Of a DNA stretch of 64,000 nucleotides, positions 1,008 through 24,017 are shown one piece after another. The position numbers and the translations under genes were made by a program. Origin of the DNA: Candidatus Falkowbacteria bacterium (lineage in GTDB: Bacteria; Patescibacteriota; Patescibacteriia; Patescibacteriales; UBA12465); the NCBI GenBank assembly GCA_903847415.1, contig CAINDR010000015.1, positions 33,872 through 97,871 on the forward strand, read 5' to 3'. Position 1 is the first letter of the stretch; each line of letters starts with the position of its first letter. The notes below the pieces were generated by a model. The model did not search any database. It was not told the DNA's origin and saw nothing but the letters and a program-made list of their open reading frames with translations.

Positions 1008-1025
1008 AGATAATTAATTAAATTT

Positions 1026-1250: not shown

Positions 1251-1308
1251 AGGATTTACTCAATCCCGAATTATTTCGGGATTGGTCTAAGAATTTTAAG
1301 TAATTTAT

Positions 1309-2147: not shown

Positions 2148-2148
2148 T

Positions 2149-3017: not shown

Positions 3018-3022
3018 AATTT

Positions 3023-3187
3023 ATGTCTATTAAAAAAAGTGAGATTGAGGACAAATCAATTAAGCCTAGCAAAAGTGATAATTTAACTGAGTTTAACTAT
3101 CCGGAGTACAATATCACCGTCAAGGCTAAAAATCAGGCAGAAGCCGATGAATTATTAAATCAAATTATTAATCAAGAAAACATATGA
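3023..3187 (+). CDS. Small phage ORF (54 aa), unknown
   Basis: ATG at 3023 to TGA at 3185-3187. Overlaps the start of the next gene by 4 nt. Absent from the ORF track because it is under 60 aa. Confidence 0.2.
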   Translation: MSIKKSEIEDKSIKPSKSDNLTEFNYPEYNITVKAKNQAEADELLNQIINQENI

Positions 3188-4161: not shown

Positions 4162-4165
4162 TTAT

Positions 4166-4471
4166 ATGCCGATATTAAAAGATTCAAGAGAAGTTAAAAA
4201 TATCCTTTTACCAGAAAGTGGAATAACGATCAGAATTAAAGATGGTTTGCTGGCTGGAGATTTAGAGGCTTTGGAAAGTGAGCAGAGCGAATTTAAAAAG
4301 ATGATCGCTATGATTACTAGATTGATTATTGATTGGGATGCCGAGGGTGAGGATGGTGTAAAATTGCCAATTAATTTTAATACAGTGAATTTGTTTGGCT
4401 TTACTGATTTGAAGTTTATTCAGGATAATTTGTCATTTTTAAAAAGTTTTTTAGCGGTAACTCCGAGTTAG
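4166..4471 (+). CDS. Tail assembly chaperone (putative)
   Basis: 101-aa acidic protein immediately upstream of the tape measure gene, the canonical position. Confidence 0.35.
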   Translation: MPILKDSREVKNILLPESGITIRIKDGLLAGDLEALESEQSEFKKMIAMITRLIIDWDAEGEDGVKLPINFNTVNLFGFTDLKFIQDNLSFLKSFLAVTPS

Positions 4472-4636
4472 TCTATGAAATAAAGCGAGCGGTTCGGTAC
4501 AGGGAATGGAGCCACCAAACAGTCAAACTATTCCTGTGCCAAGAGATGGGTTGGACTGAGGAGGAGTTTTTGAGTCAAAGAGTCGAGTTCATTAGGGGTA
4601 TGTTCACATTTATTATGGAAATAAAAGAAGTGCAAA

Positions 4637-6268: not shown

Positions 6269-6269
6269 T

Positions 6270-7772: not shown

Positions 7773-7777
7773 AAAAT

Positions 7778-8335
7778 ATGAGCAAATTAAATCAAAACAT
7801 TGGAGCAGTTGGTGAAATAAAAGCCAGTTTTTATGATCAGAGTAATTTGCAGAATTGGCAAATTGCTTTGAATAAAGTTTTAGCTAAATGTCGAAAGTAT
7901 GAGCCTTCAATAATGAAGTTTTATCAGCTAGGTAGGATGGTTAAGTGTGACGAAATAAAAAATGTTATTAGTGCTAACGGCTTTAATACTTTGGCACGCA
8001 GATTGGCTGGAGATACTACTTATACAGGGATTATCAATAAAATGATTCTTGGAACTGGCGTTGGCACACCAGCAGAAACAGACACACAGTTATTTGCCGA
8101 GGCATATCGCAATGATACGGCTAGTGCTACCTCGTCAGGTAAGATTGCTTATCTCACTGCCTATTTTACCGAGACGGAATGTGTTGGTGCATTCAAAGAA
8201 TTTGGTAATTGCATTGATGGTGGTTCAGGGGTTAATACTGGGCAGTTGTGGTCTCACATTGCTGGATTAAATTGGGTTAAAACAAACACGGTCGTTTTGG
8301 TGGTGTCTTGTAAATACACCCTGCAAAACGCTTAG
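7778..8335 (+). CDS. Phage tail-associated hypothetical protein
   Basis: 185-aa ORF in the tail module. Confidence 0.25.
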   Translation: MSKLNQNIGAVGEIKASFYDQSNLQNWQIALNKVLAKCRKYEPSIMKFYQLGRMVKCDEIKNVISANGFNTLARRLAGDTTYTGIINKMILGTGVGTPAETDTQLFAEAYRNDTASATSSGKIAYLTAYFTETECVGAFKEFGNCIDGGSGVNTGQLWSHIAGLNWVKTNTVVLVVSCKYTLQNA

Positions 8336-8339
8336 TTAT

Positions 8340-8555
8340 ATGATTCTTAAAGTAAAGATAAAAGTTAATGATGAAATTGAGGCTTATAAGTTGGTTTCCG
8401 AGCTTGGTTTTGAGTACACGGTAATGAATGCTGATCTTGATGGTCACAGTGAAGATTTTACGGCCAAGAATAAGCCAGCTCATTTTCTTAAAGATAAAAA
8501 AAGACCTGCTCCGAAATTTTTCAGCAAAGGTGATGCAAAGCCAAGAGTCAATTAA
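8340..8555 (+). CDS. Hypothetical phage protein
   Basis: 71-aa ORF, basic C-terminus. Confidence 0.2.
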   Translation: MILKVKIKVNDEIEAYKLVSELGFEYTVMNADLDGHSEDFTAKNKPAHFLKDKKRPAPKFFSKGDAKPRVN

Positions 8556-8559
8556 ATTT

Positions 8560-8811
8560 ATGAAAATATTTACCAACGAAAAATTATACGCTTCTGATTT
8601 GAATAATGCTTTATATGAACTGGGCAATAATGTTTCGATTACTTATAACGATGATCAGACGATTAAAACTATTACTGATAATAACACCAGCACCACTTAT
8701 ACGCTTAGCTGGTCAATGGGCAAATTGGTGGGGTACACAGACGGAACGCATACATGGACTTTAACTTACAGTTCGGACGGTTCGTTGGTTACCGGCATAA
8801 CTATGGCTTAA
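8560..8811 (+). CDS. Hypothetical phage protein
   Basis: ATG at 8560 within track ORF 8428-8811. 83 aa, Thr/Ser-rich. Confidence 0.2.
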   Translation: MKIFTNEKLYASDLNNALYELGNNVSITYNDDQTIKTITDNNTSTTYTLSWSMGKLVGYTDGTHTWTLTYSSDGSLVTGITMA

Positions 8812-8826
8812 TTTTAAAATAAACAT

Positions 8827-10371
8827 ATGGGTATAAATGTATTTACAAGTCCTTTTGGATCAAATAATGGCAGTACTAACGGAATTTATCCGGTCTTTGG
8901 CAAGTTTGTAGACAGTCAGATTGTCGGTGCTGAGAAATGGAGCGATGGGAGCTATAACACTCAGGGTATTCTTTATCCGAAGTCTTTTCGTACTGCCGAG
9001 CAGACAATCATCGATGGTATGATTTCAACATTAAGTGGTAGTTATGCATCGGACAATACTAAATATGCGATTAATGAAACCAAGAACAAGGTTTTGGGGG
9101 AATTCGTTAGTCAGTATAAGACCTTAAAGAATTTGCAGTTAAAGCAAAGGATGGGCTACAACACTATTCCAGTTTCTTCTTATCAGCCACAGTCATTAAG
9201 AGGTGTGGTGCAATTGTCGGACAGCAAGATTGCGGTTGCTTACGATTGTAATGGTACGGCCTATGTCAGTATTGTTGACGTGACAGGTTTTGGTGACATG
9301 TCTTTTTCGGCTTCAACTTATATGCCTAATGGTTGTATTCACATATTTTACGTAGCACCAAATAAGTTTGGCATTGTGACTGGTAGTGGATTGCAGATTG
9401 CGACGGTATCGGGGCAAACAATTACGTTTGGTACGCACCAAGCGTACAGTTGGAATAACTCAGGATCAATCAATGCTAATTACATCAGCGACAATGTTTT
9501 TGCAGTTTCTTATCAGGATAATAGTTCTTATATTCAAGGCTTGGTTTGTACGGTGGCAGGCACTGTTATTACTATCGGCACACCGCAATTGGTTTCGACT
9601 TCAGCGGCTCATACCAACGGCAATGTGGTTAGTATGGGTGCTGGCAAGGTGTTGTTTAAATACGCACTCAATACTGATTCCAATAATATTAGGTTAAGAT
9701 GTGCGACTTTTTCAGGCACAGTGATGACCTTTGGTGCCGAAGTTGTACTTGCAAACACTACTTATGCTGGGTATTACAGAATAACTCCATTAACGACAGA
9801 TAAGGCATTTATAAGCTATACCTCCAAGGCTTATAATGGCAGTACATATTTTGCTTATGGAGCAATTATAACTACCTCGGGCACGGCTATTACCATTAAT
9901 ACGGGTTGTCCATTATTTGATTTGTCTGCAAATACTGCTAGTAGTATGGCGCTGAGTGCTACCGAGGTTATGTTTTTTGGTAATGGAAAATTGGTTAAAT
10001 TGGGTATATCAGGAACGGTTATTACAATTGATGATAGAGCATCTTTAGACACTTCGTATTCAGGGGACTTTTACAGTGGCAGTTGGAGTTCTCAGAATTT
10101 TTCTGATATCGCTTGCAAAGTAACGGCCGACAAATTTTTAATTGCTAGTTATGGCATAAATAATGCAAGTCAATTTACGCTTGGCATTTATAACAAGATT
10201 TACGCCGAGATTAGAGTTAATGGGGCATTGGTTAGTTCACCGACTTTTTGGTTTAATACGGATTTACTTTTGAACACGGCATTGTCACCGATCAGGAATT
10301 ATATCGCCATTAAAAATTTAACTAGTCAGAGTCAATATTCAATCGAACGATTGATTGTTGAGACTAAATAA
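8827..10371 (+). CDS. Tail fibre / receptor-binding protein (putative)
   Basis: 514 aa, Ser/Thr/Gly/Asn-rich, beta-rich. Last large gene before the lysis cassette. Confidence 0.4.
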   Translation: MGINVFTSPFGSNNGSTNGIYPVFGKFVDSQIVGAEKWSDGSYNTQGILYPKSFRTAEQTIIDGMISTLSGSYASDNTKYAINETKNKVLGEFVSQYKTLKNLQLKQRMGYNTIPVSSYQPQSLRGVVQLSDSKIAVAYDCNGTAYVSIVDVTGFGDMSFSASTYMPNGCIHIFYVAPNKFGIVTGSGLQIATVSGQTITFGTHQAYSWNNSGSINANYISDNVFAVSYQDNSSYIQGLVCTVAGTVITIGTPQLVSTSAAHTNGNVVSMGAGKVLFKYALNTDSNNIRLRCATFSGTVMTFGAEVVLANTTYAGYYRITPLTTDKAFISYTSKAYNGSTYFAYGAIITTSGTAITINTGCPLFDLSANTASSMALSATEVMFFGNGKLVKLGISGTVITIDDRASLDTSYSGDFYSGSWSSQNFSDIACKVTADKFLIASYGINNASQFTLGIYNKIYAEIRVNGALVSSPTFWFNTDLLLNTALSPIRNYIAIKNLTSQSQYSIERLIVETK

Positions 10372-10378
10372 TAAATAT

Positions 10379-10540
10379 ATGGATTATACAAAAGAATTTT
10401 TATTAAGCGTGGCAGTGGTGTTTGTTAGTGCTGGCACAACTGTTGTGCAGAAGGATTTAGTGCAAGGTATTATTTTATTACTCTTGGGTGTAGGCGTGTT
10501 TTTTGGCCGAGGGTTTTATAAGAAATACTTCGGCAATTAA
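10379..10540 (+). CDS. Holin-like small membrane protein
   Basis: 53 aa with two hydrophobic segments (LLSVAVVFVSAGTTVV, GIILLLLGVGVFFG). Immediately upstream of the endolysin. Confidence 0.35.
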   Translation: MDYTKEFLLSVAVVFVSAGTTVVQKDLVQGIILLLLGVGVFFGRGFYKKYFGN

Positions 10541-10544
10541 TAGT

Positions 10545-10784
10545 ATGGCAAATAGCAAACTTGATTTAATTATCGACAAAATAAACGATCTTAAAGACGG
10601 CAATTCGCACGAGCATGAGGAGATTAAAAAGCGACTTGATTTGACCAATGGCAATGTAGCTAAAAATACGGCATTCAGAATTGAGGTTTCAACAACGATT
10701 AAAAATCTCAAGTGGCTATTAGGTTTATTGGGTATTGGTAATATCGCCAACCTGATTTACATCATTATTAAATATCAGCGTTAA
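10545..10784 (+). CDS. Small membrane protein (holin/antiholin-like)
   Basis: 79 aa with a C-terminal TM segment LKWLLGLLGIGNIANLIYIII. Between the holin-like gene and the amidase. Confidence 0.3.
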   Translation: MANSKLDLIIDKINDLKDGNSHEHEEIKKRLDLTNGNVAKNTAFRIEVSTTIKNLKWLLGLLGIGNIANLIYIIIKYQR

Positions 10785-10788
10785 ATTT

Positions 10789-11232
10789 ATGCAAAAAATC
10801 AAATACATCATGCTTCATCATTCGGCTGTGTCGCATGAAAAGAATGCTGATCAGTTTGTGGCTAATAATAATTATCACAAGGCTCAGTGGAATTTTAAGA
10901 GTTCGATGGGCTATTATCTTGGATACAATTATGAAATTGCTAAGTCAGGCTTGGTTCGCCAAGCAAGGCGTGATGGTGAGCAAACAGCAGCGTGTTATCA
11001 AAAAAATATGAATAACGGTCAATGCGTTCATATTTGTTTAGATGGTAATTTTGACATAGAAAAGCCAGCACCAGAGCAGATTTATGCTTTACGAGATCTA
11101 GTTAAAAAGTTGGTTAGGACTTACGGTGTTATCAAGGGTAATATTATTTTTCATTCGGCTTATGCTCCAAAGACTTGCCCAGGCAAAAATATTGATATTA
11201 ATTTTGTTAGAGGTTTGGTTGATCAAAAATAG
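10789..11232 (+). CDS. N-acetylmuramoyl-L-alanine amidase endolysin (amidase_2 / PGRP fold)
   Basis: IMLHHSAV...H-x-A...HSAYAPKTCPG pattern typical of amidase_2 zinc amidases. 147 aa. Follows the holin-like genes. Confidence 0.75.
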   Translation: MQKIKYIMLHHSAVSHEKNADQFVANNNYHKAQWNFKSSMGYYLGYNYEIAKSGLVRQARRDGEQTAACYQKNMNNGQCVHICLDGNFDIEKPAPEQIYALRDLVKKLVRTYGVIKGNIIFHSAYAPKTCPGKNIDINFVRGLVDQK

Positions 11233-12008: not shown

Positions 12009-12036
12009 ACCTCACTTATTCGGTGAGGTTTTTTGT
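12009..12036 (+). terminator. Rho-independent terminator
   Basis: Hairpin ACCTCAC ttattcg GTGAGGT followed by a T-run. Closes the phage late-gene block. Confidence 0.5.
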
Positions 12037-12145
12037 TTATCAAAAAATTGGTTTTACTGTAATTTTGACAAATACTGCCATTTTTTGACATTAAGCAAAT
12101 TTAGCAGTAAGATATATTTATACAAACTTAGCCTAAAATGATTAT

Positions 12146-12328
12146 ATGGAAAGCAAACAAGACAAACTTTTAACTATTGAAGAGGTGGCAGAAATCTTAA
12201 GAGTTAGCACTAGGTCGGTAATCAGATATATTGAATCAGAGAAGCTAAAAGCTTCAAAAATTGGTGTTTGGAGAATTAAATCTTCTGATGTTGATTTATT
12301 CTTGGAACAGACCAGTAACAAAAGTTAA
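12146..12328 (+). CDS. Helix-turn-helix DNA-binding protein (excisionase/MerR-like)
   Basis: 60 aa. LTIEEVAEILRVSTRSVIRYIESEKLKASKIG is the typical excisionase-family HTH pattern. Confidence 0.5.
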   Translation: MESKQDKLLTIEEVAEILRVSTRSVIRYIESEKLKASKIGVWRIKSSDVDLFLEQTSNKS

Positions 12329-12350
12329 TAAAATATTTAAATATTCTTAT

Positions 12351-13928
12351 ATGTCAGAAGAACAAAAAAGATTACTCGAAAAGCAACTTTGGGGAGTAGC
12401 TAACGTGTTGCGTGGCAAGATGAATGCTGATGAATATAAAAACTATATTCTTGGTTTTATATTTTATAAGTATTTATCCGAAAAGCTTGAAAGATACGTT
12501 AACGAAAAATTGCTTGCCAGTGACAATGTTGTTTTTGTTGATATTAATGAAAATACAAAAGAGGGTAAGGAATATATTGAGAATATCGAATCGGCATGTG
12601 TTAGTCACTTGGGTTTCTTTTTAAAACCAACCGAGTTGTTTTCATATCTAGTTAATAAGGGAAAGGGAAATATTGATGGACAAAAAACATTTATTCTTGA
12701 GGACTTAAAAAACATTTTAAACAGTATCGAACAAACTTCGATGGGAACGGCCAGTGAAGATGATTTTAAGGGACTTTTTGACGATGTTGATTTAACCTCA
12801 TCTAAACTGGGATCGAGTGAGAATAAAAAAAATGATGTTATTGTGGAGGTATTGTCCTTGCTTAGCGGAATTGATTTTAAATTAGAAGATGCAAAAAATG
12901 ATTTGCTCGGTGATGCTTATGAGTATTTGATTGGAGAATTCGCAGCTGGAGCAGGCAAAAAGGGCGGTGAATTTTATACTCCAGCTCAAGTATCTCGCTT
13001 GTTAGCACAGATTGTATCTGTAGATAAAAAGCGAGTACGTTCAGTTTTTGATCCCACCTGCGGATCAGGATCTCTTTTGTTGCGTCTTAAAGACTATGTA
13101 GAAGTATCGGATTACTATGGTCAAGAATTAAATCCTACTACTTACAACTTGGCACGCATGAACATGATATTGCATGGAGTTCATTTTGACCACTTTAAAA
13201 TTAAGCAGGGAGATACTTTGACCGAAGACATGCATCCAGATCTTAAAGCTGAGGCGGTGATTGCAAATCCTCCATTTTCCGCAAAGTGGAAAGGAGAAGA
13301 AGATCCACAATTGGCAAATGACGATAGATTCTCGCAGTATGGTAGATTAGCGCCCAAGGGTGCGGCTGATTATGCTTTTATAACACACATGCTTTATCAT
13401 CTTTCTGACAACGGCACTATGGCCATAGTTTTACCCCATGGTGCATTATTTCGTTCAGGAGCAGAAGAACATATAAGAAAATATATTATTGAAAAACAGA
13501 ATTATCTTGATGCTGTTATAGGCTTGCCAGCTAATCTTTTTTATGGAACTAGTATTCCAGCAACAATTTTAGTTTTTAAAAAATGTCGAAAGGATAACGA
13601 AGATATTATATTTATTGACGGATCGAAGGAATTTGAAAGGGGTAAAAATCAAAATAAATTAAGTGATGAAAATATTGCTAAAATTTTTAATACTTATAAA
13701 GATCGTAAGGAAATCGAAAGGTATTCTCATAAGGCTGGCTTGGAAGAAATAAAAGATAATGAATATAATTTAAACATTCCTAGATATATTGATAGTGTTG
13801 AAGCGGAACAGCAAATAAATTTAGAAGATGTGTCTAAAAATTTAAAAGAATTAGGTGTAAATGTATTAGAGATTGAGAATATTATCGAGGGATTTTGCAA
13901 TGAGCTCAAAATAAGTAAACCATTCTAA
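12351..13928 (+). CDS. hsdM: Type I restriction-modification system methyltransferase subunit
   Basis: N6-adenine methyltransferase motifs: DPTCGSGS (motif I) and IANPPFS (motif IV, NPPF). HsdM-like N-terminal domain. ATG 12351 chosen within track ORF 12261-13928. Confidence 0.85.
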   Translation: MSEEQKRLLEKQLWGVANVLRGKMNADEYKNYILGFIFYKYLSEKLERYVNEKLLASDNVVFVDINENTKEGKEYIENIESACVSHLGFFLKPTELFSYLVNKGKGNIDGQKTFILEDLKNILNSIEQTSMGTASEDDFKGLFDDVDLTSSKLGSSENKKNDVIVEVLSLLSGIDFKLEDAKNDLLGDAYEYLIGEFAAGAGKKGGEFYTPAQVSRLLAQIVSVDKKRVRSVFDPTCGSGSLLLRLKDYVEVSDYYGQELNPTTYNLARMNMILHGVHFDHFKIKQGDTLTEDMHPDLKAEAVIANPPFSAKWKGEEDPQLANDDRFSQYGRLAPKGAADYAFITHMLYHLSDNGTMAIVLPHGALFRSGAEEHIRKYIIEKQNYLDAVIGLPANLFYGTSIPATILVFKKCRKDNEDIIFIDGSKEFERGKNQNKLSDENIAKIFNTYKDRKEIERYSHKAGLEEIKDNEYNLNIPRYIDSVEAEQQINLEDVSKNLKELGVNVLEIENIIEGFCNELKISKPF

Positions 13929-13931
13929 GAT

Positions 13932-15119
13932 ATGATAGATACAAAGCTAAAAATAAATAATAAAAACTTGTTTCCAGAATTACGATTTCCAGATTTTAAA
14001 GAGCCTTGGCAAAGAAAAAAACTTAATGAAGTTTTCAAAGAAATAACAGAAACTATAGGAGATAGAAATATTGAAACATACAGTGTAACAGCTGGAAAAG
14101 GTTTTGTTAGCCAAAAAGAAAAGTTTGGTAAAAATATATCCGGGCAACAAAATTCTAAATATATTGTTCTTGGGTCTAATGACTTTTCTTATAATAAAGG
14201 TAATTCAAAGACGTATAAGTGTGGTTGCATTTATTTAAACACTGAAGATAGAAAAATAGCTGTGCCAAATGTTTTTATTAGTTTTAGATTAATTGATAAA
14301 AATAATGATGCTTTTTATTTTTCAAAACTTTTTGAATCTCATTATTTAGATATTGGCTTAAGAAAGATTATTTCAAGCACTTCTAGGGCAGATGGGTTGT
14401 TGAATGTAAATAAAAAGAATTTCTTTAATCTTGAAATAATGTTGCCCAGTCAGCCCGAACAAAAAAAGATATCCATTTTTTTATCTACAATTGATAAGTG
14501 GATTGAAAATTTATACAACCAAAAAGTATTTTTGCAAGAATATAAAAAAAGTATTGCCCAGAAGATATTTTCCCAAGAAATTAGATTTAAGGATGATGAT
14601 GGTAACTCTTTTGATGATTGGAAATGGAATAAATTGAGTGATATTTGCACCATTAAAACGGGAAAAAAAGATGTAAATGAAGGTAATCCAAAAGGAGCTT
14701 ACCCTTTTTTTACTTGTGCAAAGAAGCCGACTTATTGTGATAGCTATTCATTTGATTGTGAGGCAATTCTGATTGCCGGCAATGGAGAAGTGGGGCATTG
14801 CCAAAAGTATAGTGGTAAATTTGAAGCATATCAAAGAACTTATGTGTTAAGTAATTTTATGTGTAATTCTGATTATTTATTTGCTTTTTTAAATTCGTTT
14901 TTTCAGATTTATGTAAATAGTAAAAAGCAAACAGGTGCGATGCCTTATATAAAACTTGGGATGCTGGAAAACTACACTATACCTATATTATCTTTATTGG
15001 AGCAACAGAAAATTGCTAACTTTCTAAATTCAATAGATAAATTTATTGAATTAAAAGAAAAGGAGATTGTAAAAGCCGAAGAGTGGAAAGTCGGGTTAAC
15101 ACAAAAATTATTTATATAA
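13932..15119 (+). CDS. hsdS: Type I restriction-modification system specificity subunit
   Basis: 395 aa. Sits between hsdM and hsdR with 3-nt gaps. Two-domain organisation separated by a conserved helical spacer (LPSQPEQKKISIFL, LEQQKIANFL). Confidence 0.7.
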   Translation: MIDTKLKINNKNLFPELRFPDFKEPWQRKKLNEVFKEITETIGDRNIETYSVTAGKGFVSQKEKFGKNISGQQNSKYIVLGSNDFSYNKGNSKTYKCGCIYLNTEDRKIAVPNVFISFRLIDKNNDAFYFSKLFESHYLDIGLRKIISSTSRADGLLNVNKKNFFNLEIMLPSQPEQKKISIFLSTIDKWIENLYNQKVFLQEYKKSIAQKIFSQEIRFKDDDGNSFDDWKWNKLSDICTIKTGKKDVNEGNPKGAYPFFTCAKKPTYCDSYSFDCEAILIAGNGEVGHCQKYSGKFEAYQRTYVLSNFMCNSDYLFAFLNSFFQIYVNSKKQTGAMPYIKLGMLENYTIPILSLLEQQKIANFLNSIDKFIELKEKEIVKAEEWKVGLTQKLFI

Positions 15120-15121
15120 AT

Positions 15122-17920
15122 ATGTCACATCAATCAGAATTACAACTTGAAAAAACCTTGATAAGTCAGCTCGAAAGACTGGGGTTTGAGTCGGTTATCT
15201 TAGAAGACACTAAGTCTTTAGATATAAATTTAAAAACACAGTTGGAAAAGTTTAATAAAACGACTTTTTCAGATTTAGAGTTTTCAAGAATATTAAATCA
15301 TCTTAAAAAAGGGGATAGATTTCATAAAGCAAAAATTCTAAGAGATCGTTTTGTGTTGTCTCGTGACGATGACAGTAAATTTTGGGTGCGTTTCTTTAAT
15401 ATGGAGCAGTGGTGTAAGAATGAATATCAAGTAACCAATCAGATCACAAATGTCGGGCGTTATGAAAATAGATACGATGTCACATTGCTTATAAACGGTT
15501 TACCATTAGTTCATATTGAATTAAAAAGACGTGGAATTGAGATGAAAGAAGCTTTTAATCAGATTCAGCGTTATCACAAGCACTCGTTTACAGGAACGCT
15601 GTTTGAATTCGTTCAGATATTTGTAATTTCTAACGGAGTAAATACTAAATATTTTGCTAATAACCCTAAACAATCATTTGAGCAGACATTTTATTGGACA
15701 GATGAAAAAAATAATAAGATAACTCAACTCGATGAATTTGCTTCAGTCTTTTTGGAAAAATGTTCTGTGTCAAAAACTATTGCAGAATATATAGTGTTGG
15801 CAGAGTCATTGCAAATTCCAATGATACTTCGCCCTTATCAGTATTATGCGGTCAAGGCTATAGAGAATCGTGTAAAAGAATCAGGTAAAAATGGTTATAT
15901 TTGGCATACAACTGGATCTGGAAAAACATTAACATCATACAAGGCCAGTCAAATACTTTCACAAAACCCTGAAATAAAAAAGGTATTATTTGTGGTTGAT
16001 CGTAAGGATTTGGATATTCAGACAACTAAAGAATTTAATTCGTTTTCTGACGGGTCTGTAGATGGCACAAATTATACTAGAAATCTGGTAGCACAATTAA
16101 AAGACCCAAGCAGAAAATTAATTGTGACGACTATCCAGAAATTGGATATTGCGATTGGCAGAGAATCATATCTTAAACAGTTTGAAAGTCTGGCTAACGA
16201 AAAAATAGTTATTATTTTTGATGAGTGTCATCGTAGTCAATTTGGTCAGACTCATGCTCGCATTAAGGGCTTCTTTAAGAAAGCCCAGTTATTTGGTTTT
16301 ACAGGTACGCCTATCTTTGCGGATAATAATGTTGGGGGAGTTACTACTGCCGATGTTTTTGGTGAATGCTTACATAAATATATAATCACTAATGCAATAT
16401 CGGATAATAATGTACTTGGCTTTGCCGTTGAGTATGTTGGCAAATATACTCAGAAAGATCAAAGTACTTTGGATGCAGATATTTTTGCTGAAACATTGGT
16501 TGAGGGTATAGATACTAAGGAAGTTCTAGAAAGTCCGGAAAGATTAAACAAGATCACTGACTATGTTTTAGCTGATTGGAAAAGAAAAACAAAGAACGGT
16601 AAGTTTAACGCTTTGTTTGCAGTTTCCAGTATTGAAGTTTTGAAAAAATATTATACTTTATTTAAGACTAAAAAATCAGACGACCTTAAAATCGCTACTA
16701 TCTTTACTTATCAAGTGAATGAAGATGAAAGCGGAGACATGCTTGATTTTGATGTTTTTGCTGGAGAGGAAGCTACTGGTAATCAGCATTCTAGGAATTT
16801 TTTAGAAGCTTGTATCAAGGATTATAACTTATTATATTCGACCAATTTCTCAACTGATCGCTTTTATGATTATTACAAAGACCTGCAAAAAAGAATTAAG
16901 GATAAAGAGGTTGATTTAGTCTTGGTGGTTAATATGTTTTTGACGGGATTTGATAGTCCAAGACTCAATACACTTTATGTTGATAAAAATTTGCAATATC
17001 ATGGATTAATTCAGGCCTACTCTAGAACTAATAGATTATTGAATTCTGATAAGCCCCACGGGAATGTCGTATCTTTTAGAAATTTAAAAAAGGCTACCGA
17101 CAAAGCTTTAGCACTTTTTGGTGATGAAAATGCTAAAGAAATAGTTTTTAAAAGGCCATACGATGAACAGAAAAAAGAATTTGAAGATAAATTGTCAGAA
17201 TTACGTGAAGCGGTTCCAACTGTTAGTTCTGTTGATTCTTTGCAAAGCGAGGAGGAAAAGGCCGTTTTTGTTAAAACATTTCGTGATTTGCTTCGCATTA
17301 AATCTTCGCTTGAAACATTTTCTGATTTTTCTTTTGGAGATTTAGGAATAAGCGAGCAAGAATTTTATGATTACCAAAGTAAATATTTGGATGTTTACGA
17401 GGATCGAAAAAATGAAGAAAGTACGGCGGAATCAATTCTTGATCAGATTGATTTTGAACTTGAACTTACTGTCCGTGATATTATTAATTTTGATTATATA
17501 ATTCTGTTAATAGCTGGTTTGAAATGCATTACTTCTGATGTGTTGCGAAAAAAGAAAGCAGAAGAAATACTTCGTATTTTTGACAGAGATGTGCAGTTGC
17601 GAAAAAAGAAAGATTTAATTCGCAAATTTATTGAAGAGAACTTGCCAAAAATTAGCAAGATGGATGATGTTGAAAAAGCATTTAATCATTTTTGGACAAG
17701 TGAAAGAGCCGAGGTATTAAAAAAATTAGCTGAAGATGAGAACATTCCTACTGAAAAGATTGAAGGCTTGATTGGTGAATATTTATATACTCAGAAATTA
17801 CCAAGAGAACAAGATATTGCTGATATGCTACCAGTCCAGCCAAAAATCATGGAAAGAAAGGGTATTATAAACAGGATTAAGAATGCAATTGAAAATATCG
17901 TTGATATGTTTGAGTGGTAA
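15122..17920 (+). CDS. hsdR: Type I restriction enzyme endonuclease/helicase subunit
   Basis: Roughly 930 aa. Walker A TTGSGKT and DEAH-like FDECHRSQ helicase motifs. N-terminal nuclease region. ATG at 15122 directly after the hsdS stop. Confidence 0.85.
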   Translation: MSHQSELQLEKTLISQLERLGFESVILEDTKSLDINLKTQLEKFNKTTFSDLEFSRILNHLKKGDRFHKAKILRDRFVLSRDDDSKFWVRFFNMEQWCKNEYQVTNQITNVGRYENRYDVTLLINGLPLVHIELKRRGIEMKEAFNQIQRYHKHSFTGTLFEFVQIFVISNGVNTKYFANNPKQSFEQTFYWTDEKNNKITQLDEFASVFLEKCSVSKTIAEYIVLAESLQIPMILRPYQYYAVKAIENRVKESGKNGYIWHTTGSGKTLTSYKASQILSQNPEIKKVLFVVDRKDLDIQTTKEFNSFSDGSVDGTNYTRNLVAQLKDPSRKLIVTTIQKLDIAIGRESYLKQFESLANEKIVIIFDECHRSQFGQTHARIKGFFKKAQLFGFTGTPIFADNNVGGVTTADVFGECLHKYIITNAISDNNVLGFAVEYVGKYTQKDQSTLDADIFAETLVEGIDTKEVLESPERLNKITDYVLADWKRKTKNGKFNALFAVSSIEVLKKYYTLFKTKKSDDLKIATIFTYQVNEDESGDMLDFDVFAGEEATGNQHSRNFLEACIKDYNLLYSTNFSTDRFYDYYKDLQKRIKDKEVDLVLVVNMFLTGFDSPRLNTLYVDKNLQYHGLIQAYSRTNRLLNSDKPHGNVVSFRNLKKATDKALALFGDENAKEIVFKRPYDEQKKEFEDKLSELREAVPTVSSVDSLQSEEEKAVFVKTFRDLLRIKSSLETFSDFSFGDLGISEQEFYDYQSKYLDVYEDRKNEESTAESILDQIDFELELTVRDIINFDYIILLIAGLKCITSDVLRKKKAEEILRIFDRDVQLRKKKDLIRKFIEENLPKISKMDDVEKAFNHFWTSERAEVLKKLAEDENIPTEKIEGLIGEYLYTQKLPREQDIADMLPVQPKIMERKGIINRIKNAIENIVDMFEW

Positions 17921-17937
17921 TTATTATAAGACGACCT

Positions 17938-19971
17938 ATGATTAAAAATAAAACTAAAAATTTAGTATATTTGTTTACCTTTACTGGAGCTTTATTTTGT
18001 TTAAAGTTTTTAGTCATTGATAAAGCCTTTCCGAACATTTCAAATGATGCACAAGTTTGGTTTACAAGCGGATTGCTATTGATTGTTCTTGGGGTATTTG
18101 TTACGGAGAAATTTTTCACTAAGCCGTTGGATGTAATAGTTAATATTATAACTTTAGCAGTGGTTTTATCCATGTTGGATCATAAAGATAAGTTTTTGTT
18201 ATTTTTCCCATTATCAGTTTATCTTGTAATTATTGCTCTTGTTGCTTTGGTTTCGTTCGTTTTGATTGATCAAGAAAAAGATAGAAATCATTTGTCACAA
18301 AGAATTGCGAATTCAGCAAATATTATTTCTGGTTTTTTGGGTAGCTCTAAAATGTTGTTTTCAATTGTTTTTATTTTATCAATTTTTAGCTATTTTATAG
18401 CCTCACTGGAAAATGACAGTCTAATTAATAAGGGGCAAATAGCTATAATGTTATTAATTATATTTTGGGGAGTAGCTATTTTAATGGAATCAATCGACAA
18501 AAAATTAATAACACCTTTGTTAAATAGAATTAAGAGTGAGGCAAAAATAAAAATGGTTGGGAAAGTGATTAAACGGTTAAGCCCGAATATTGTTTATGTT
18601 GAACAATCGCCATATTCGCCAGTATTAAAGTCGGGTGATCTCGTTTTTGTTGATGATATAAAAAATTCAAATGAAGGTAAGGAATTGCCCTGCATGATGT
18701 ATATATCGGAGCAAGAATCTGAAAATAAAAAATATTTACAATTTTATTGTTTCGATAATAACCATATTGACGTAAACAAACAGACCCATGTTTTTAAATC
18801 GTTTGTAGAAGCCCCCGCTAAAATATTGGAATCTGAAATATATGTTAACAGGGAAAATATAATTGGCTTTGTTTATTCAGATTCAGATATTGACGTAATA
18901 AAAGTAAAAATGATCGAGGGTGTTGATGAAAAAAAGGAACTAAAAGAGGGCGACTTAATCTCGGTAAATTTTTATAAAAACCATACAAAATATCAAATAA
19001 TTAATGTTGAAACAGAATTCGAAAATATTGACGGACAAAGCAAGAAAGGTGTTAAAATTATTACCGCTCAACAAATAGGATATTGGCAAGGAGAAAAACA
19101 AAAATTCGCTGATACGGGATGGGTGCCAAGTATAAATATGCCAGTTTTTATAGAAAATCAAACTGACGACATAGTAGATCTAGAAGGTAATTTCTTTCGT
19201 GTTGGTATTGTGCCAAGATCTAAGTATCCAATATACGTTGATTTGGATGAGTGTGTAACGCATCATATCGCGATAATTGGTAAAACTGGTACCGGAAAAT
19301 CTTACATGGCTTCAAGGGTAATCGAAAAAATGGCAATGAGCGGTTATAAAATAATAGTATTAGAAGTTGATCGTAACAATTCTCAGTCTTTATCAAAGTA
19401 TATTGATAGTAGTTTGATAGAGGAGCAGGGAGCGGATGCATTTAATCCATCAACTTCCACTAAAAACATAATTTCAATTGCATTGCAAATGGGTGAAGCT
19501 GTTAGGGGAGGCGGAACTGTTAATTTTAGTGATATGGCCGCAGAGCTAATTAACAAAGTGATTGCTTATCAAACTGGTAATCCTGATACGAAAATTTGTG
19601 TCGTTATGGAAGAAGCTTATGACTTCATTCCGGAAAATTCATTTGGCAAGCAAGAGTTTGGTCAGCCCAATGTGAGTCGTATTTCTCAGCAAGTTCTAAA
19701 GTGTAGAAAACATAATATCGGCTTTTTGATAATTACTCAAAGAACAGCATTGGTAACAAAAACAATTTTATATCAGTGCCATACTATTATTGCATTGCAA
19801 TCTTTTGATGAAACTTCAAAGAATTTCATGGGAGCTTATATTAATGGTAGATATTTAGACTCAATGAGTATTCTGCCTAAATTTCGTGCGATTGTGGTTG
19901 GCAAGGGTTCGACTTGTGATAAACCAGTAATAGTTGATTTTTTTGACAGTAAAGCTTCTAAAAATAATTAA
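17938..19971 (+). CDS. Membrane-anchored HerA/FtsK-superfamily (DUF87-like) P-loop ATPase
   Basis: About six N-terminal TM helices. Walker A HHIAIIGKTGTGKSY, Walker B ICVVMEEAYDF, and CRKHNIGFLIITQRTALV (arginine-finger region typical of HerA-like ATPases). Overlaps the hsdR stop. Confidence 0.5.
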   Translation: MIKNKTKNLVYLFTFTGALFCLKFLVIDKAFPNISNDAQVWFTSGLLLIVLGVFVTEKFFTKPLDVIVNIITLAVVLSMLDHKDKFLLFFPLSVYLVIIALVALVSFVLIDQEKDRNHLSQRIANSANIISGFLGSSKMLFSIVFILSIFSYFIASLENDSLINKGQIAIMLLIIFWGVAILMESIDKKLITPLLNRIKSEAKIKMVGKVIKRLSPNIVYVEQSPYSPVLKSGDLVFVDDIKNSNEGKELPCMMYISEQESENKKYLQFYCFDNNHIDVNKQTHVFKSFVEAPAKILESEIYVNRENIIGFVYSDSDIDVIKVKMIEGVDEKKELKEGDLISVNFYKNHTKYQIINVETEFENIDGQSKKGVKIITAQQIGYWQGEKQKFADTGWVPSINMPVFIENQTDDIVDLEGNFFRVGIVPRSKYPIYVDLDECVTHHIAIIGKTGTGKSYMASRVIEKMAMSGYKIIVLEVDRNNSQSLSKYIDSSLIEEQGADAFNPSTSTKNIISIALQMGEAVRGGGTVNFSDMAAELINKVIAYQTGNPDTKICVVMEEAYDFIPENSFGKQEFGQPNVSRISQQVLKCRKHNIGFLIITQRTALVTKTILYQCHTIIALQSFDETSKNFMGAYINGRYLDSMSILPKFRAIVVGKGSTCDKPVIVDFFDSKASKNN

Positions 19972-20006
19972 TAGCAATATTTCTAGGATATTGTTAAAGA
20001 AAATAT

Positions 20007-20921
20007 ATGGCATTATTCAAAAAAGATAACTCAAAGTTATCAGTTATTAACGAAAAACGAATAGATCTCGAGCGTGATATTCAAAGACTCACGGAAGAAA
20101 ATCTTGATTGCGTTTTTGGGCTTGAATTCGTTAGTACAGAGTTTGCTCTGCATAGTTTTAGAATTGATACTTTGGCATTTGATAAAGAGAGTGGTTCATT
20201 TGTAATTATTGAATATAAAAGAGATAGAAGCTTTAGTGTTATTGATCAGGGCTATGCGTATTTAGCACTCATGCTTAATAATAAATCTGACTTTATACTT
20301 GAGTACAATGAAAAAACCAATAATAATCTTAACAGGGCGGATGTTGATTGGACTCAATCTAAGGTTATTTTTATTGCCAATTCTTTTACTTCATATCAGA
20401 TGAATGCAATTAATTTTAAGGATTTGCCTATTGAATTGTGGGAAGTTAAATTTTTTGATAATGACGTAATTCTGTATAATCAGTTGCTATCTCAAGATTC
20501 AAGGGAATCAATAAAAACTATTACAAAAAATAATGATATAAATAGCGTTAGTAATGAGGTGAAAGTTTACACTCTTGAAGATCATCTTAATGTTCCTGAA
20601 AATACAAAGAATTTGTTTTTTGCTTTGAGGGAAAAAATTCTTGCTATTAATGACTCAATCGAGGAAAGACCTAAACAAAATTATGTCTCCTATAGACTGA
20701 GAAATGCTTTTGCTTACGTTCATAATCAACAGTCAAAAATTAAAATTCACTTAGAAATTCATAAAAATGAATTAAATGATCCACGTGGTATTGCTAGAGA
20801 TGTAACAAATGTTGGTCATCATGGTGGAGGTGAGACCGAGGTAATTTTAGATAGCGAAGAAAATTTAAATTATGTCTTTGATCTAATTGAACAGGCATAT
20901 CGTAAAATTTTAGGTAAGTAA
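20007..20921 (+). CDS. PD-(D/E)xK nuclease-like protein with uncharacterised C-terminal domain
   Basis: N-terminal FRIDTLAFDKESGSFVIIEYKRD gives D...E-x-K spacing typical of NucS/restriction-endonuclease-fold nucleases. 304 aa. Confidence 0.4.
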   Translation: MALFKKDNSKLSVINEKRIDLERDIQRLTEENLDCVFGLEFVSTEFALHSFRIDTLAFDKESGSFVIIEYKRDRSFSVIDQGYAYLALMLNNKSDFILEYNEKTNNNLNRADVDWTQSKVIFIANSFTSYQMNAINFKDLPIELWEVKFFDNDVILYNQLLSQDSRESIKTITKNNDINSVSNEVKVYTLEDHLNVPENTKNLFFALREKILAINDSIEERPKQNYVSYRLRNAFAYVHNQQSKIKIHLEIHKNELNDPRGIARDVTNVGHHGGGETEVILDSEENLNYVFDLIEQAYRKILGK

Positions 20922-21032
20922 ATTGTATGAAAAATTATTGCTTTTGTTGCTTTATTCTGATTTAGCAGGCGACATTTGCTTAAAATAGAATACGTGCTAG
21001 TTTAACTATTATTATTTTGTTATAATAAATTT

Positions 21033-21788
21033 ATGAAAGGCAATATTTATAAAAAAAATTATTTAAGTAAGGTAATTCTTAGAATTGATTTTATTAAATC
21101 AATAGAGTTGTCAAAGCTAAGATCATACGCTGATAGTATTTCATCAATATTTCCTTTGTCTAAGCAGATTGACGGCGAGGAAGGATATTTTGATCTTAAT
21201 TTGCAAACAAAGCAACTTAATCAGCATACTAATAAAATAGTTTCTTGGGTTTTTACTGACAAAAATAGTACCAAAAATTTACAGATAAGTCCGAGTTATT
21301 TATTTATCGAATACTTAAAATATAAAAATTCAACAGACCTCATTAATGATGTTGAAAAAGTTGTTAATGTCTTTATAAATTCATTCGGCGTTAAGACGAT
21401 TAAAAGGATTGGTTTGAGATATTTAAATGAGATAGAGTTGCACAATGAAAAAGATTATTTAAAATGGGATAAGTATATAGCTAATGATTTGTTGGGTGCT
21501 ATTTCCTTTGCAAATAATAGTGAATTCTCTGTGTCGAGATCTATGGGACAGTTGGTATTTAAAGACGGATTTAATATTATTAATTTTAATTTCGGAGTAT
21601 GGAATGACGACTACCCCAATGAGGTTAATAGGAAGAGTTTTGTATTAGATTACGACTGTTATTCAAATATACCTGTTGATTTGTCGGATACGAGTATAGT
21701 GGACGTTGTCAAAGAGTATAATAGTAAAATTGAAAAGATCTTTGAGTTAAGTATCTCTGATAGTTTTAGGGGATTGCTTAATAAGTAA
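21033..21788 (+). CDS. Hypothetical protein (conserved-looking, unknown function)
   Basis: 251 aa. Contains IGLRYLNEIEL. No catalytic motif recognised. Confidence 0.3.
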   Translation: MKGNIYKKNYLSKVILRIDFIKSIELSKLRSYADSISSIFPLSKQIDGEEGYFDLNLQTKQLNQHTNKIVSWVFTDKNSTKNLQISPSYLFIEYLKYKNSTDLINDVEKVVNVFINSFGVKTIKRIGLRYLNEIELHNEKDYLKWDKYIANDLLGAISFANNSEFSVSRSMGQLVFKDGFNIINFNFGVWNDDYPNEVNRKSFVLDYDCYSNIPVDLSDTSIVDVVKEYNSKIEKIFELSISDSFRGLLNK

Positions 21789-21894
21789 CCGTATATGAAA
21801 GCAGAAAATAAACAAGCTAAATATTCAGAAGTAGTTATTAATAAAAACATACATCACGATTCAACATCGGGTAGGTTTATAGATAGGCAGGACG

Positions 21895-22527
21895 TTGATT
21901 ATAATGTTTTTAAGAATGTATATCCTGATAGAAAAACGAGTTTTGGACAAAATTATGCTAACAAGTCAAATTAAATATCGGTATAAAAAAATCAACAAAA
22001 AGAGACTTTGCCAAGGTGACATATTAAGGGGCGTGGAGTTTAAAATTGGTGATTCGAATTATGGAGGGAAGTCTGATACTGTTGGTTTAAAATATGCGGT
22101 GGTGATGAGTCAAGATTGTGATATAAATTCAGATTTTTTGAATAAAGAAAAGAAGAAAAGTAATCCAGATGCAGATGATGATAAATTTTTACCAACAATC
22201 TTAGTTTGCCCTGCATATATTTCCGGTGAATTTTATATCGGAAGTCACATAAATGGTTGGTCGATGAAACCTTTTAGTAAGAAGGAAATCGAGAAGCTAA
22301 TGAAAAATGATGAGTATAAGCGTTATCACTATTTGCATCAAAATAATGATCTTGGAATACCAGAGTTAATAATTGACTTTAAACATTTTTTTACATTACC
22401 AGTTGGACTTCTTTATAAGTACAAAAAAACTTCATATATTTCTACTATTAGTGAAGTTTTCAGAGAGGAGCTTTCTCAACGATTTGCTGGCTATCTGTCT
22501 AGATTTGGATTGCCGGATCTAAAATAA
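21895..22527 (+). CDS. Hypothetical protein
   Basis: Roughly 190-210 aa depending on start choice. No recognisable domain. Confidence 0.3.
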   Translation: MIIMFLRMYILIEKRVLDKIMLTSQIKYRYKKINKKRLCQGDILRGVEFKIGDSNYGGKSDTVGLKYAVVMSQDCDINSDFLNKEKKKSNPDADDDKFLPTILVCPAYISGEFYIGSHINGWSMKPFSKKEIEKLMKNDEYKRYHYLHQNNDLGIPELIIDFKHFFTLPVGLLYKYKKTSYISTISEVFREELSQRFAGYLSRFGLPDLK

Positions 22528-22590
22528 TAATTTATCATTTCTTCATAAAAACTTTAGAATTATTTTATCAAAAATTTATCTAAATTTTAA

Positions 22591-22622
22591 AAGCGACCAG
22601 TTATGATAACTGGTCGCTTTTG
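22591..22622 (+). terminator. Rho-independent terminator
   Basis: 12-bp perfect stem GCGACCAGTTAT / ATAACTGGTCGC followed by TTTT. Confidence 0.6.
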
Positions 22623-22866: not shown

Positions 22867-23082
22867 ATGAATAAAGCGAATCACAAAGCGTTAGGCCGTT
22901 ATGCCTACGGAGGAAAGATTTTTCTCGGAGAATGCCATGATTGTGGCAAAGAACATTATTTAACTGTGGAACAGGTTCAGGAAGTGATGAACAATAGTTA
23001 CATCAAGCCTAGACCAGCTTTGCGACAAAAAATCAAAGGTCAGGTCGCAATTTTTGAGAAAGCATTTAGCCTATTTGCCTAA
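22867..23082 (+). CDS. Hypothetical small protein
   Basis: 71 aa. Possibly integrase-cotranscribed. Followed by a hairpin and T-run. Confidence 0.3.
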   Translation: MNKANHKALGRYAYGGKIFLGECHDCGKEHYLTVEQVQEVMNNSYIKPRPALRQKIKGQVAIFEKAFSLFA

Positions 23083-23108
23083 GTCCGAGTTCCGGACTTT
23101 TTAATTTT

Positions 23109-24017
23109 ATGAAAATACACGAGGCAGGGCTAAAGTTTTTTGAGTGGTGTGAGATTGAACAAAATCATTCAAAAAAGACAGTTACCAATTATGAGCATCA
23201 CTTTCGTCATTTTAATGAATGGACGGGGGAGATTGATGTAAGGCAAATAAACGAGGACTTGATTTTAAAGTATAAAAAACATCTGTTAGATACTGATCAT
23301 GCCTATCAGAAGAATCGTAAGATAAAATTATCTACGGTTAGTGAAAAATTAAAGATGATCAGAATGTTTTTGACTTGTATGGAGAAGAAAAGTATCAAGG
23401 CTATGCCACCTTCATTTGTGCCGAAGGGGGTACGTGCTAGTGATCGGATTATCTTTTTCAACCAAGATGAGTTTAAAAGGATGATTGATACTATCGATAC
23501 CAGTAATAACGAGGGCAAGCGGAATCGGGCATTACTCGAGATATTGTTTGCTACTGGCATGAGACTTGAGGAGATGATTAAATTGAATAGAGATATTGAT
23601 ATAAATGGTGGGGAGATAATCGTGCAGGGTAAGTTTGATAAGATTAGGACGGTTTACTTGAACGAGCGGGCTATTTTTTGGGTTAATGAATACCTGAAGA
23701 CTAGGCACGACAATTATCCGGCGCTATTCACCTTTACTCGTAAGCGTAATGAGTGGACAGAGCTGAATAATGGTCGAATTGGCAAGCGGTCAGCACAGGA
23801 GGTGGTTAAGAAGTATGTTAAGCTGGCAGGGCTAAGAAGCGACATTTCTACGCATAGTTTTAGGCATTCTTTTGCCACTCACATGCTAAAGAATGGAGCC
23901 GATCTTAGGGCGGTTCAGATGTTTTTAGGTCATAGTGACCTTAGGAGCACGCAGGTTTATACTCATTATGTTAATCCGGAGCTGAAGCAGATACATAACA
24001 GGCTGATGAATTTTTAG
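23109..24017 (+). CDS. Tyrosine-type site-specific recombinase / phage integrase
   Basis: C-terminal catalytic signature HSFRHSFATHMLKNGADLRAVQMFLGHSDLRSTQVYTH (R...HxxR...Y). Confidence 0.85.
   Translation: MKIHEAGLKFFEWCEIEQNHSKKTVTNYEHHFRHFNEWTGEIDVRQINEDLILKYKKHLLDTDHAYQKNRKIKLSTVSEKLKMIRMFLTCMEKKSIKAMPPSFVPKGVRASDRIIFFNQDEFKRMIDTIDTSNNEGKRNRALLEILFATGMRLEEMIKLNRDIDINGGEIIVQGKFDKIRTVYLNERAIFWVNEYLKTRHDNYPALFTFTRKRNEWTELNNGRIGKRSAQEVVKKYVKLAGLRSDISTHSFRHSFATHMLKNGADLRAVQMFLGHSDLRSTQVYTHYVNPELKQIHNRLMNF

Follow-up and report, generated by a model that had tools for sequence, protein, structure and literature searches.

A HerA-family ATPase with a predicted membrane domain, recurrently appended to restriction-modification operons, in a prophage-borne gene island of Candidatus Falkowbacteria

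Why should a HerA-type ATPase with a predicted membrane domain be encoded directly after a type I restriction-modification (R-M) system, and with which of its neighbours, if any, does it work? The question arises from a stretch of 64,000 nucleotides (nt) of contig CAINDR010000015.1 of a Candidatus Falkowbacteria bacterium (the whole stretch is here called the window, and positions are numbered along it), in which an island of genes, all on the + strand at 12146-22527, runs from the R-M genes through the ATPase, which we call TM-HerA, to a nuclease-type protein and three further genes. An initial annotation of this DNA proposed that the ATPase and the nuclease-type protein may form a distinct accessory defence module, co-transcribed with the R-M system. 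In our best reading the island is made up of four defence-type modules, probably read from one strand: the type I R-M genes with a small HTH_17 protein, TM-HerA, a protein of the PDC-S18 family, and a trio consisting of a TIGR04255 protein, a small open reading frame (ORF) and a protein with a predicted MazF fold. We are confident of this gene content and of the independence of the modules; the overall reading, in which the four are independent and TM-HerA is a stand-alone defence candidate associated with R-M systems, seems to us on balance probable.

The gene at the centre of this reading is the following:

17938-19971, + strand: TM-HerA, 677 amino acids (aa); Pfam DUF87 at 5e-13 (50 bits against a cut-off of 23.2)

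Its start at ATG 17938, which lies 17 nt past the hsdR stop codon, agrees with 26 aligned homologues and with the public gene call of 677 aa. The overlap between the hsdR stop and the ATPase start that had been described holds for the longest ORF, which begins at GTG 17914, but not for this start. From the N-terminus, six transmembrane (TM) helices (residues ~8-186) are followed by a beta-barrel (204-290), a HAS-barrel-like domain (308-435) and a RecA-like HerA ATPase domain (436-677). The hydrophobic helices, placed from hydropathy and an AlphaFold2 (AF2) model, occupy residues 8-28, 39-57, 62-80, 88-109, 137-158 and 166-186, and are accompanied by one amphipathic helix; hydropathy, the distribution of Lys and Arg, and the Lys-rich stretches at either end of the membrane domain point to an N-in/C-in topology. 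The Walker A motif (GKTGTGKS), the Walker B motif (MEEAY), R590 and Q601-R602 are invariant throughout the family, even at 23-31% identity, as are G448-K454-S455 and E558-E559. The initial annotation had recognized about six TM helices fused to a HerA-like ATPase, and this description is borne out by the six helices, the DUF87 match, both Walker motifs and R590, Q601 and R602.

The fold tells the same story. The best 50 Foldseek matches of TM-HerA in the PDB are all to HerA proteins, from SIR2-HerA, DUF4297-HerA and NurA-HerA complexes (top match 8woc, 9e-16), and in a search of the PDB with a profile of the family, the barrel and both halves of the ATPase aligned to anti-phage HerA chains (9c1m at 5e-19, followed by 8wiv and 8xau). 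With its HAS-barrel and its RecA-like ATPase carrying Walker A, Walker B and the conserved Arg, TM-HerA is, as judged from sequence and predicted fold, a member of the HerA family. It gave no PADLOC match to the KAP/Tmn-type transmembrane NTPases, and its ATPase domain matches the PADLOC model for mad8 at 1e-10.

Might such a protein be a pump that moves DNA between cells? The FtsK, SpoIIIE and TraB pumps and the TraD/VirD4 coupling proteins have the same plan as TM-HerA, with N-terminal membrane helices attached to a ring ATPase of the FtsK-HerA superfamily, and one could suppose that TM-HerA serves a mobile element in the manner of the single-protein TraB/FtsK translocases of conjugative elements in actinomycetes, or of a coupling protein, by transferring the element or prophage from cell to cell. 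Large serine recombinases are found near L004, L007, L009, L047, L049, L052 and L053 (L-numbers, L001-L072, are our labels for the homologue loci compared), a few homologues have weak precomputed matches to TrwB_AAD_bind, and the window also encodes a separate ATPase like a type IV coupling protein (T4CP) at 28289-30289. However, TM-HerA falls in the HerA clade and has HAS-barrel domains; its scores against conjugative ATPases are negligible (TraC, 18 bits against 567; VirB4, 16 against 643); no genes for a relaxase, for replication or for mating-pair formation adjoin it; family members occur on plasmids typed as non-mobilizable; and a position at the end of an R-M operon is unlike that of transfer genes. 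We regard a role as a transfer pump as very improbable. An orthologue of TraD or another coupling protein, which the initial annotation had itself raised as a possibility, is rejected: the SXT_TraD score is 15.9 bits against a cut-off of 366, and no T4CP is among the best 50 fold matches.

In the membrane domain, residues W41, F42, S44, G45, T56, E57, F60 and T61, among others, are invariant in 27 sequences, and in a wide alignment reaching to 23-31% identity the motifs of the membrane domain are kept at majority level, with G135 invariant. Conservation as unusual as this argues for a role beyond anchoring, and we infer that the membrane domain is more than an anchor.

How widespread is the family? 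Seventy full-length homologues (39-84% identity) were collected, and a profile search of 1.84 billion representatives found 462 clusters at E<=1e-30, at least 150 of which span both the membrane domain and the ATPase. The closest homologues come from Patescibacteria-type metagenome bins, and the overall distribution is sporadic over unrelated phyla, with 50-75% identity between them. The family is thus a large one without functional annotation: public databases give "DUF87 domain-containing protein" only, and it is absent from PADLOC 2.0. That many of the hosts are bacteria of the candidate phyla radiation (CPR), which depend on scavenged nucleotides, and that nrdR and nrdD lie just past the island, might suggest a housekeeping membrane ATPase, concerned with chromosome segregation or with DNA uptake for nucleotide salvage and merely situated beside mobile DNA. 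To this we give almost no credence, in view of the sporadic occurrence at such high identity across unrelated phyla, the low-GC islands in which the gene lies, the recombinases, insertion sequence (IS) elements and defence genes that surround it, and the lack of conserved housekeeping neighbours.

The neighbourhoods of TM-HerA genes were compared in 13 genome loci, 31 metagenome loci and 8 further contigs, with upstream sequence available in 37 contexts. All-against-all BLAST of the neighbours at the 13 genome loci revealed no conserved neighbour; the sole cluster of neighbours present at more than one locus came from four loci and had no fixed position relative to the ATPase, and Pfam identified large serine recombinases near several related loci. 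What does recur is a position. In 18 of the 37 contexts the gene is immediately preceded, in the same orientation, by R-M or other restriction genes, and these are of at least eight unrelated kinds, among them:

Type I: the window, L033
HsdR-like (type I/ISP-like) with an N6 methylase: L006, L040
Type III Mod-Res: L021, L047, L023 and, probably, L015 and L002
Two Dam methylases with AlwI: L003, L016, L017, L019
Methylase-BsaWI-methylase: L004, L026
EcoRI-type methylase with GmrSD-HNH (an enzyme that we take to be modification-dependent): L024, L005, L046
N6_N4 methylase: L052

The gap between the R-M genes and TM-HerA is -8 to +21 nt in 16 of 17 cassettes (median 4 nt), and TM-HerA is the final gene of every R-M cassette. 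In a neighbour-joining tree, ATPases found beside the same type of R-M system do not cluster, which argues that TM-HerA has repeatedly recombined with different cassettes. The family is therefore large, horizontally spread and without a fixed partner, and has been appended again and again to the 3' ends of unrelated R-M operons at translational-coupling distances. Some copies are solitary (L009, L011, L012, L049), and other copies have neighbours that are independent PADLOC candidates (PDC-S11, PDC-S54), a Cas4-like protein or a type I S subunit; some neighbours remain without annotation. More distant relatives in cultured bacteria (25-28% identity) also sit in defence loci: on an Arcobacter plasmid, beside the gene of a SLATT protein in the interval that separates hsdM/S from hsdR; on an Aminobacter plasmid adjoining AbiEi/AbiEii and two reverse transcriptases; and on a Bradyrhizobium plasmid adjoining an Abi gene and IS elements. 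From these associations it seems, on balance, that TM-HerA is a gene directed against phages or other mobile genetic elements.

Is TM-HerA then simply a part of the restriction machinery? It could be an R-M accessory that deals with the DNA ends made by restriction, whether by clearing, sequestering or exporting the fragments or by limiting self-damage, and that has no function where R-M is lacking. Its frequency at the end of R-M operons, its invariably terminal place in them and the very short gaps would all fit, as would the embedding of the Arcobacter relative inside a type I locus, and HerA/FtsK-type ATPases take part in other modification-based systems (the mad8 match mentioned above, and DndH: PMC10853773). 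Against this, the enzymes concerned have no mechanism in common (type I, type III, type IIS, type IIP and GmrSD-type, the last defined by Pfam GmrSD_N with HNH), the tree of the ATPases does not track R-M type, the R-M cassettes are complete without TM-HerA, and there are solitary copies as well as copies beside defence genes other than R-M. We consider a purely accessory role unlikely. The attachment to so many R-M types also makes a specific physical partnership with a restriction enzyme unlikely, and suggests that restriction cleavage and a membrane DNA motor are functionally linked in a more general way, at the 3' ends of type I, II, III and GmrSD-type operons alike, which may offer an approach to the cooperation of R-M systems with other defences. 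A comparison may be made with PrrC, an anticodon nuclease embedded in the EcoprrI type I R-M locus. PrrC-like genes, like the Arcobacter relative and homologues of PDC-S18 located between hsdS/M and hsdR, resemble TM-HerA in being placed within an R-M operon or as its final gene, with probable co-transcription, but TM-HerA belongs to an unrelated family and is not confined to one type of R-M system.

Several of these loci have features of their own. On the Arcobacter plasmid (L057, CP146529.1, 1420-15261) the additional genes between hsdM/S and hsdR encode RhuM, a second HsdS, a 431-aa unknown protein, the SLATT protein, the DUF87 relative of TM-HerA and a protein with an RNA-binding domain, and a gene for a SprT-like protease follows the type I locus. 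An AAA_21/AAA_15 (OLD/AbiEii-like) ATPase gene lies between the R-M genes and TM-HerA in two unrelated cassettes (L005, 3894-5459; L023, 1801-3288). The AlwI-type cassette of L017 opens with a fusion of a RadC-like JAB domain to a Dam-type (D12) methylase (1772-3580). In L002, a 913-aa ResIII helicase with a C-terminal TnsA-like endonuclease domain (1525-4266) is encoded directly upstream of TM-HerA, and genes for a Cas4-like PD-(D/E)xK protein and a PDC-S54 candidate follow. Divergent from the TM-HerA gene of L001 is a gene (8196-9764, - strand) for a 522-aa fusion of a LexA DNA-binding domain, Peptidase_S24 and a C-5 cytosine DNA methylase, an unusual combination that would link methylation to the SOS signal.

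What of the nuclease-type neighbour with which TM-HerA had been paired?

20007-20921, + strand: ORF5, PDC-S18 family, an N-terminal NucS-like D..ExK nuclease-type domain followed by a C-terminal DUF5655 domain; PADLOC PDC-S18 at 6e-115

Residues 1-298 of the 304 in ORF5 match positions 1-301 of the 302 in the PDC-S18 profile (for which PADLOC has no curated cut-off), and DUF5655 is matched at 5e-13. The D...ExK core described in the initial annotation is present as D53...E69-x-K71, and on the strength of this visible motif ORF5 is predicted to be of nuclease type. At the level of families it is neither NucS nor NurA (NucS_C, 16.9 bits against 24; NucS equivalog, 15 against 216; no NurA match), and a sequence search of the PDB gave nothing significant. 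Of the profile matches anticipated for this region, those to DUF87 and TIGR04255 were found above their cut-offs; NurA was not found, NucS was below threshold, and no DUF4297 gene is adjacent.

Two genes such as these could form a HerA-nuclease defence module like HerA-NurA or HerA-DUF4297, transcribed together with the R-M genes. They share a strand, the 35 nt that separate them contain no terminator, and the HerA proteins to which TM-HerA is matched in the PDB classically work with nucleases. At a few other loci, too, the ATPase gene has a nuclease-like neighbour: a NucS-like protein with DUF4268, related to ORF5, abuts TM-HerA in L006 (downstream; PDC-S11 at 8e-124, with N-terminal similarity to ORF5 at E 3e-4) and L033 (upstream), and other PD-(D/E)xK proteins do so in L002, L010 and L035. 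PDC-S18 (ORF5) and PDC-S11 (L006) thus both have a NucS-like N-terminal domain, joined to DUF5655 in the one and to DUF4268 in the other, and both are computational candidates. Yet these neighbours come from different families, are found now upstream and now downstream of the ATPase and are present at a minority of loci, many copies of the ATPase having no nuclease-like neighbour, so that they give residual support to a loose affinity between ATPase and nuclease rather than to a fixed pair. Moreover, homologues of ORF5 (like those of ORF6 and ORF7, described below) are absent from every other TM-HerA locus examined (45 loci), PADLOC defines PDC-S18 and PDC-S11 as single-gene candidates, and on Acinetobacter plasmids the interval from hsdS to hsdR holds homologues of ORF5 (43.5% identical), the 11 kb inspected there containing no DUF87 gene. 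From the presence of ORF5 homologues in R-M loci without the ATPase, it appears that PDC-S18 and TM-HerA each associate with R-M loci independently. Conservation of the two as neighbours had been set beforehand as the point on which the pairing would turn; since they are not so conserved, we no longer uphold the distinct ATPase-nuclease module, and now think a two-gene system quite improbable.

If TM-HerA acts alone, how does it compare with the HerA-based systems already described? The SIR2-HerA (Nezha/Gao19) and DUF4297-HerA systems have the same HAS-barrel and RecA-like fold, provide the best matches in the PDB, PADLOC and NCBIfam, and likewise occur in defence islands. They differ in that no SIR2 or DUF4297 gene adjoins TM-HerA in the window or at ~40 loci, and in that the scores against their curated anti-phage equivalogs are far too low (HerA_antiphage_2, 50 bits against 850; HerA_antiphage, 44 against 800). 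TM-HerA, unlike them, is a single gene with an N-terminal 6-TM domain and an extra beta-barrel at the place where the effector docks. The archaeal and bacterial HerA-NurA machine for end resection shares the ring-translocase fold (4d2i and 9x1m, E ~1e-14), and in the window a nuclease-type gene is adjacent, but there is no NurA homologue here, the neighbour is a NucS-like protein with DUF5655 that is not conserved with the ATPase, and TM-HerA is predicted to be embedded in the membrane. Known HerA-based defences need a separate effector; a partner-free HerA with a conserved membrane domain fused to it would be a different design.

In published HerA complexes the effector (SIR2, DUF4297 or NurA) docks on the HAS-barrel face, at the N-terminal side. 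The membrane domain of TM-HerA is fused to this same side, and so the membrane ring is likely to be the output, either as a DNA conduit or trap or as a leak. By analogy with these complexes, TM-HerA may form a HerA-type hexameric ring at the inner face of the cytoplasmic membrane, which would load on free ends of double-stranded DNA, whether of an injected phage genome or of the products of the neighbouring restriction enzyme. Restriction enzymes make DNA ends, and this would account for a generic link between them and TM-HerA. ATP-driven translocation might then drag the DNA against or into a ring of 36 conserved membrane helices, where it would be sequestered or from which it would be expelled; or it might switch the membrane ring to a leaky state, with abortive infection as the result. 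Taken singly, each of these two outcomes is a doubtful guess. A bolder suggestion, which we put forward tentatively and think less likely than not, is that TM-HerA represents an immune motor of a new class, encoded by a single gene: a HerA hexamer embedded in the membrane, in which the fused, conserved 6-TM domain replaces the soluble effector and which acts as a type-agnostic "second stage" of restriction, catching the DNA ends that arise from restriction or injection. It would thread these ends into the membrane or across it, or else abort infection by opening the membrane ring, and would have spread by being stitched onto the ends of R-M operons.

Several points weigh against the reading of TM-HerA as a stand-alone defence candidate. 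The sample of 37 contexts is modest and comes mostly from CPR metagenome bins, and several of the cassettes are related, so that the counts are not of independent events. The deeper branches of the tree are mostly solitary or beside recombinases, the association with R-M being concentrated in a crown clade. The case for defence, which on balance we find the better one, is argued from gene neighbourhood alone, and so close a coupling to R-M operons would be expected just as much if TM-HerA depended functionally on restriction. The direction in which DNA would be moved is taken from published models of HerA-NurA and not from TM-HerA. In the AF2 model of TM-HerA, which is of a monomer (predicted local distance difference test, pLDDT, 75), the membrane domain is of low confidence (pLDDT 52-84). 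Searches of phage genomes and of IMG/VR contigs gave no homologue of TM-HerA, and carriage by a prophage, as here, is atypical. Finally, a search of the literature for PDC-S18, for TIGR04255 or for a defensive HerA embedded in the membrane brought up no relevant paper.

The R-M genes upstream of TM-HerA are as follows:

12146-12328, + strand: HTH_17 (excisionase/MerR-like) DNA-binding protein, 60 aa; Pfam HTH_17 at 2e-15 (57 bits against a cut-off of 27)
12351-13928, + strand: hsdM, type I methyltransferase; TIGR00497 at 3e-137 (458 bits against a cut-off of 243)
13932-15119, + strand: hsdS, specificity subunit with two target-recognition domains; two Methylase_S stretches, PADLOC Specificity_I at 1e-69
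15122-17920, + strand: hsdR, restriction/translocase subunit; TIGR00348 at 1.5e-144 (483 bits against 285), PADLOC REase_I at 3e-302

The gaps between hsdM, hsdS and hsdR are of 2-3 nt. HsdM is further matched by N6_Mtase (1e-109), HsdM_N (7e-23) and PADLOC MTase_I (1e-163), and HsdR is built of HSDR_N, SWI2_SNF2, T1R_D3 (T1R_D3-like) and EcoR124_C domains. With TIGR00497 and TIGR00348 above their cut-offs and two Methylase_S stretches in HsdS, hsdM-hsdS-hsdR is, on its profile matches, a complete type I R-M set, as the initial annotation had held; the ORF with which the island opens is not hsdM but that for the HTH_17 protein. The set is not a MADS system (mad1-mad8): there are domain-level matches alone, the mad2 and mad5 models falling on hsdM and hsdS, and the NCBIfam scores are well below their cut-offs (MADS2, 64 bits against 720; MADS5, 26 against 400). 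This assignment, like that of PDC-S18, is routine.

The last of the four modules is less so, as the trio of genes near the 3' end of the island is a second candidate module without annotation:

21033-21788, + strand: ORF6, TIGR04255 family, first of the trio; TIGR04255 at 3.9e-28 (98.9 bits against a cut-off of 30) over residues 6-249
21795-21974, + strand: putative small ORF of 59 aa, second of the trio; its position is kept across loci, its sequence is not
21955-22527, + strand (best start 21955): ORF7, a protein of ~190 aa with a predicted MazF/PemK fold, third of the trio

The initial annotation had left two uncharacterized proteins here; they are indeed on the same strand, but can be identified as a TIGR04255 protein and a protein of predicted MazF fold, with the small ORF between them. 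In all six of the other independent loci examined, an ORF6 homologue is followed by an ORF7 homologue, and the adjacency holds down to identities of 27% for the TIGR04255 protein and 33% for ORF7. An ORF of 59-74 aa overlaps the start of ORF7 in five of these six (L054, L055, L060, L065/69/70 and a Methylocystis plasmid); at L061 no gene has been called in the gap between ORF6 and ORF7. BLAST detected no similarity between the small ORFs of different loci. Trios were located as follows:

Window: 21033-22527
L054: 4001-5662
L055: 4001-5488
L060: 657-2131
L062: 3098-4561
L072: 3012-4540

ORF7 has 312 homologues, mostly of 184-200 aa, and its AF2 model has a pLDDT of 90.6. The best 50 Foldseek matches in the PDB are all MazF-type toxins, with E-values from 1.8e-4 (best) to 0.1, and the likeness is a partial one, with TM-scores of 0.6-0.7 when normalized to the target and ~0.4 when normalized to the query, at ~12% identity. 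ORF7 has no Pfam match (PemK included), nor any in PADLOC or NCBIfam, and sequence searches of the PDB with the TIGR04255 protein and with ORF7 gave nothing significant. In MazE-MazF systems the antitoxin gene is immediately upstream of the toxin gene, and the small ORF overlapping the start of ORF7 is in a similarly antitoxin-like position. ORF7 differs from MazF in its greater length (~190 against ~115 aa) and in being always preceded by the 250-aa TIGR04255 protein, and an activity as ribonuclease is at most predicted. As far as the modelled fold and gene order go, the trio looks like a toxin-antitoxin-like module. It often adjoins R-M or Abi genes (an Abi gene in the case of the annotated Methylocystis plasmid) and is absent from PADLOC 2.0. 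In L062, which represents a recurrent metagenome locus (L062-L070), there is beside the trio a gene for an Ltp-type lipoprotein (Pfam Lipoprotein_Ltp; ~4880-5416, - strand), which belongs to a phage superinfection-exclusion family.

All of this lies within phage-derived DNA, and the borders of the island are marked by the following features:

22588-22622, + strand: terminator-like hairpin closing the island; 16-bp stem, -22.4 kcal/mol, z = -7.4 against shuffled sequences
23109-24017, + strand: Xer-like tyrosine recombinase; Phage_integrase at 5e-39

PHROGs matches at 6-11232 (major head, head-tail adaptor, neck, minor tail, tape measure and tail proteins and an endolysin/amidase) define a block of structural and lysis genes that leads straight into the island; within it, a 514-aa protein (8827-10371) has no Pfam or PHROGs match. 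The recombinase falls short of the cut-offs for the XerC/XerD equivalogs (198 bits against 330) and is probably the prophage integrase, marking the end of the element; nrdR and then nrdD lie 3' of it. With the PHROGs block upstream and the recombinase downstream, the region is defence-gene cargo that a prophage carries at its integrase end, with the lysis genes to one side and the integrase to the other, which sustains the earlier description of a defence island inside a phage-derived element. Its GC content is 0.28-0.34, compared with 0.36-0.40 in the flanks; there is no tRNA gene near the island border, and flanking direct repeats were not searched for. A promoter-like site at 12085-12113 and the terminator of the preceding unit at 12009-12029 both come before the first ORF of the island. 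The hairpin at the other end has a run of U on its 3' side and was overlooked by a scan for consensus terminators; it substantiates the strong closing terminator reported initially.

Just 5' of the recombinase gene is an ORF of 71 aa (22867-23082), without a Pfam match and with a terminator-like hairpin of its own (23081-23099), which could encode an accessory of the excisionase type. Outside the island, the T4CP-like ATPase at 28289-30289 is a second member of the FtsK-HerA superfamily, of 666 aa, for which precomputed Pfam matches comprise TrwB_AAD_bind, a weak DUF87, a faint TraG-D_C and a zinc finger; it is coupling-protein-like and unrelated to TM-HerA.

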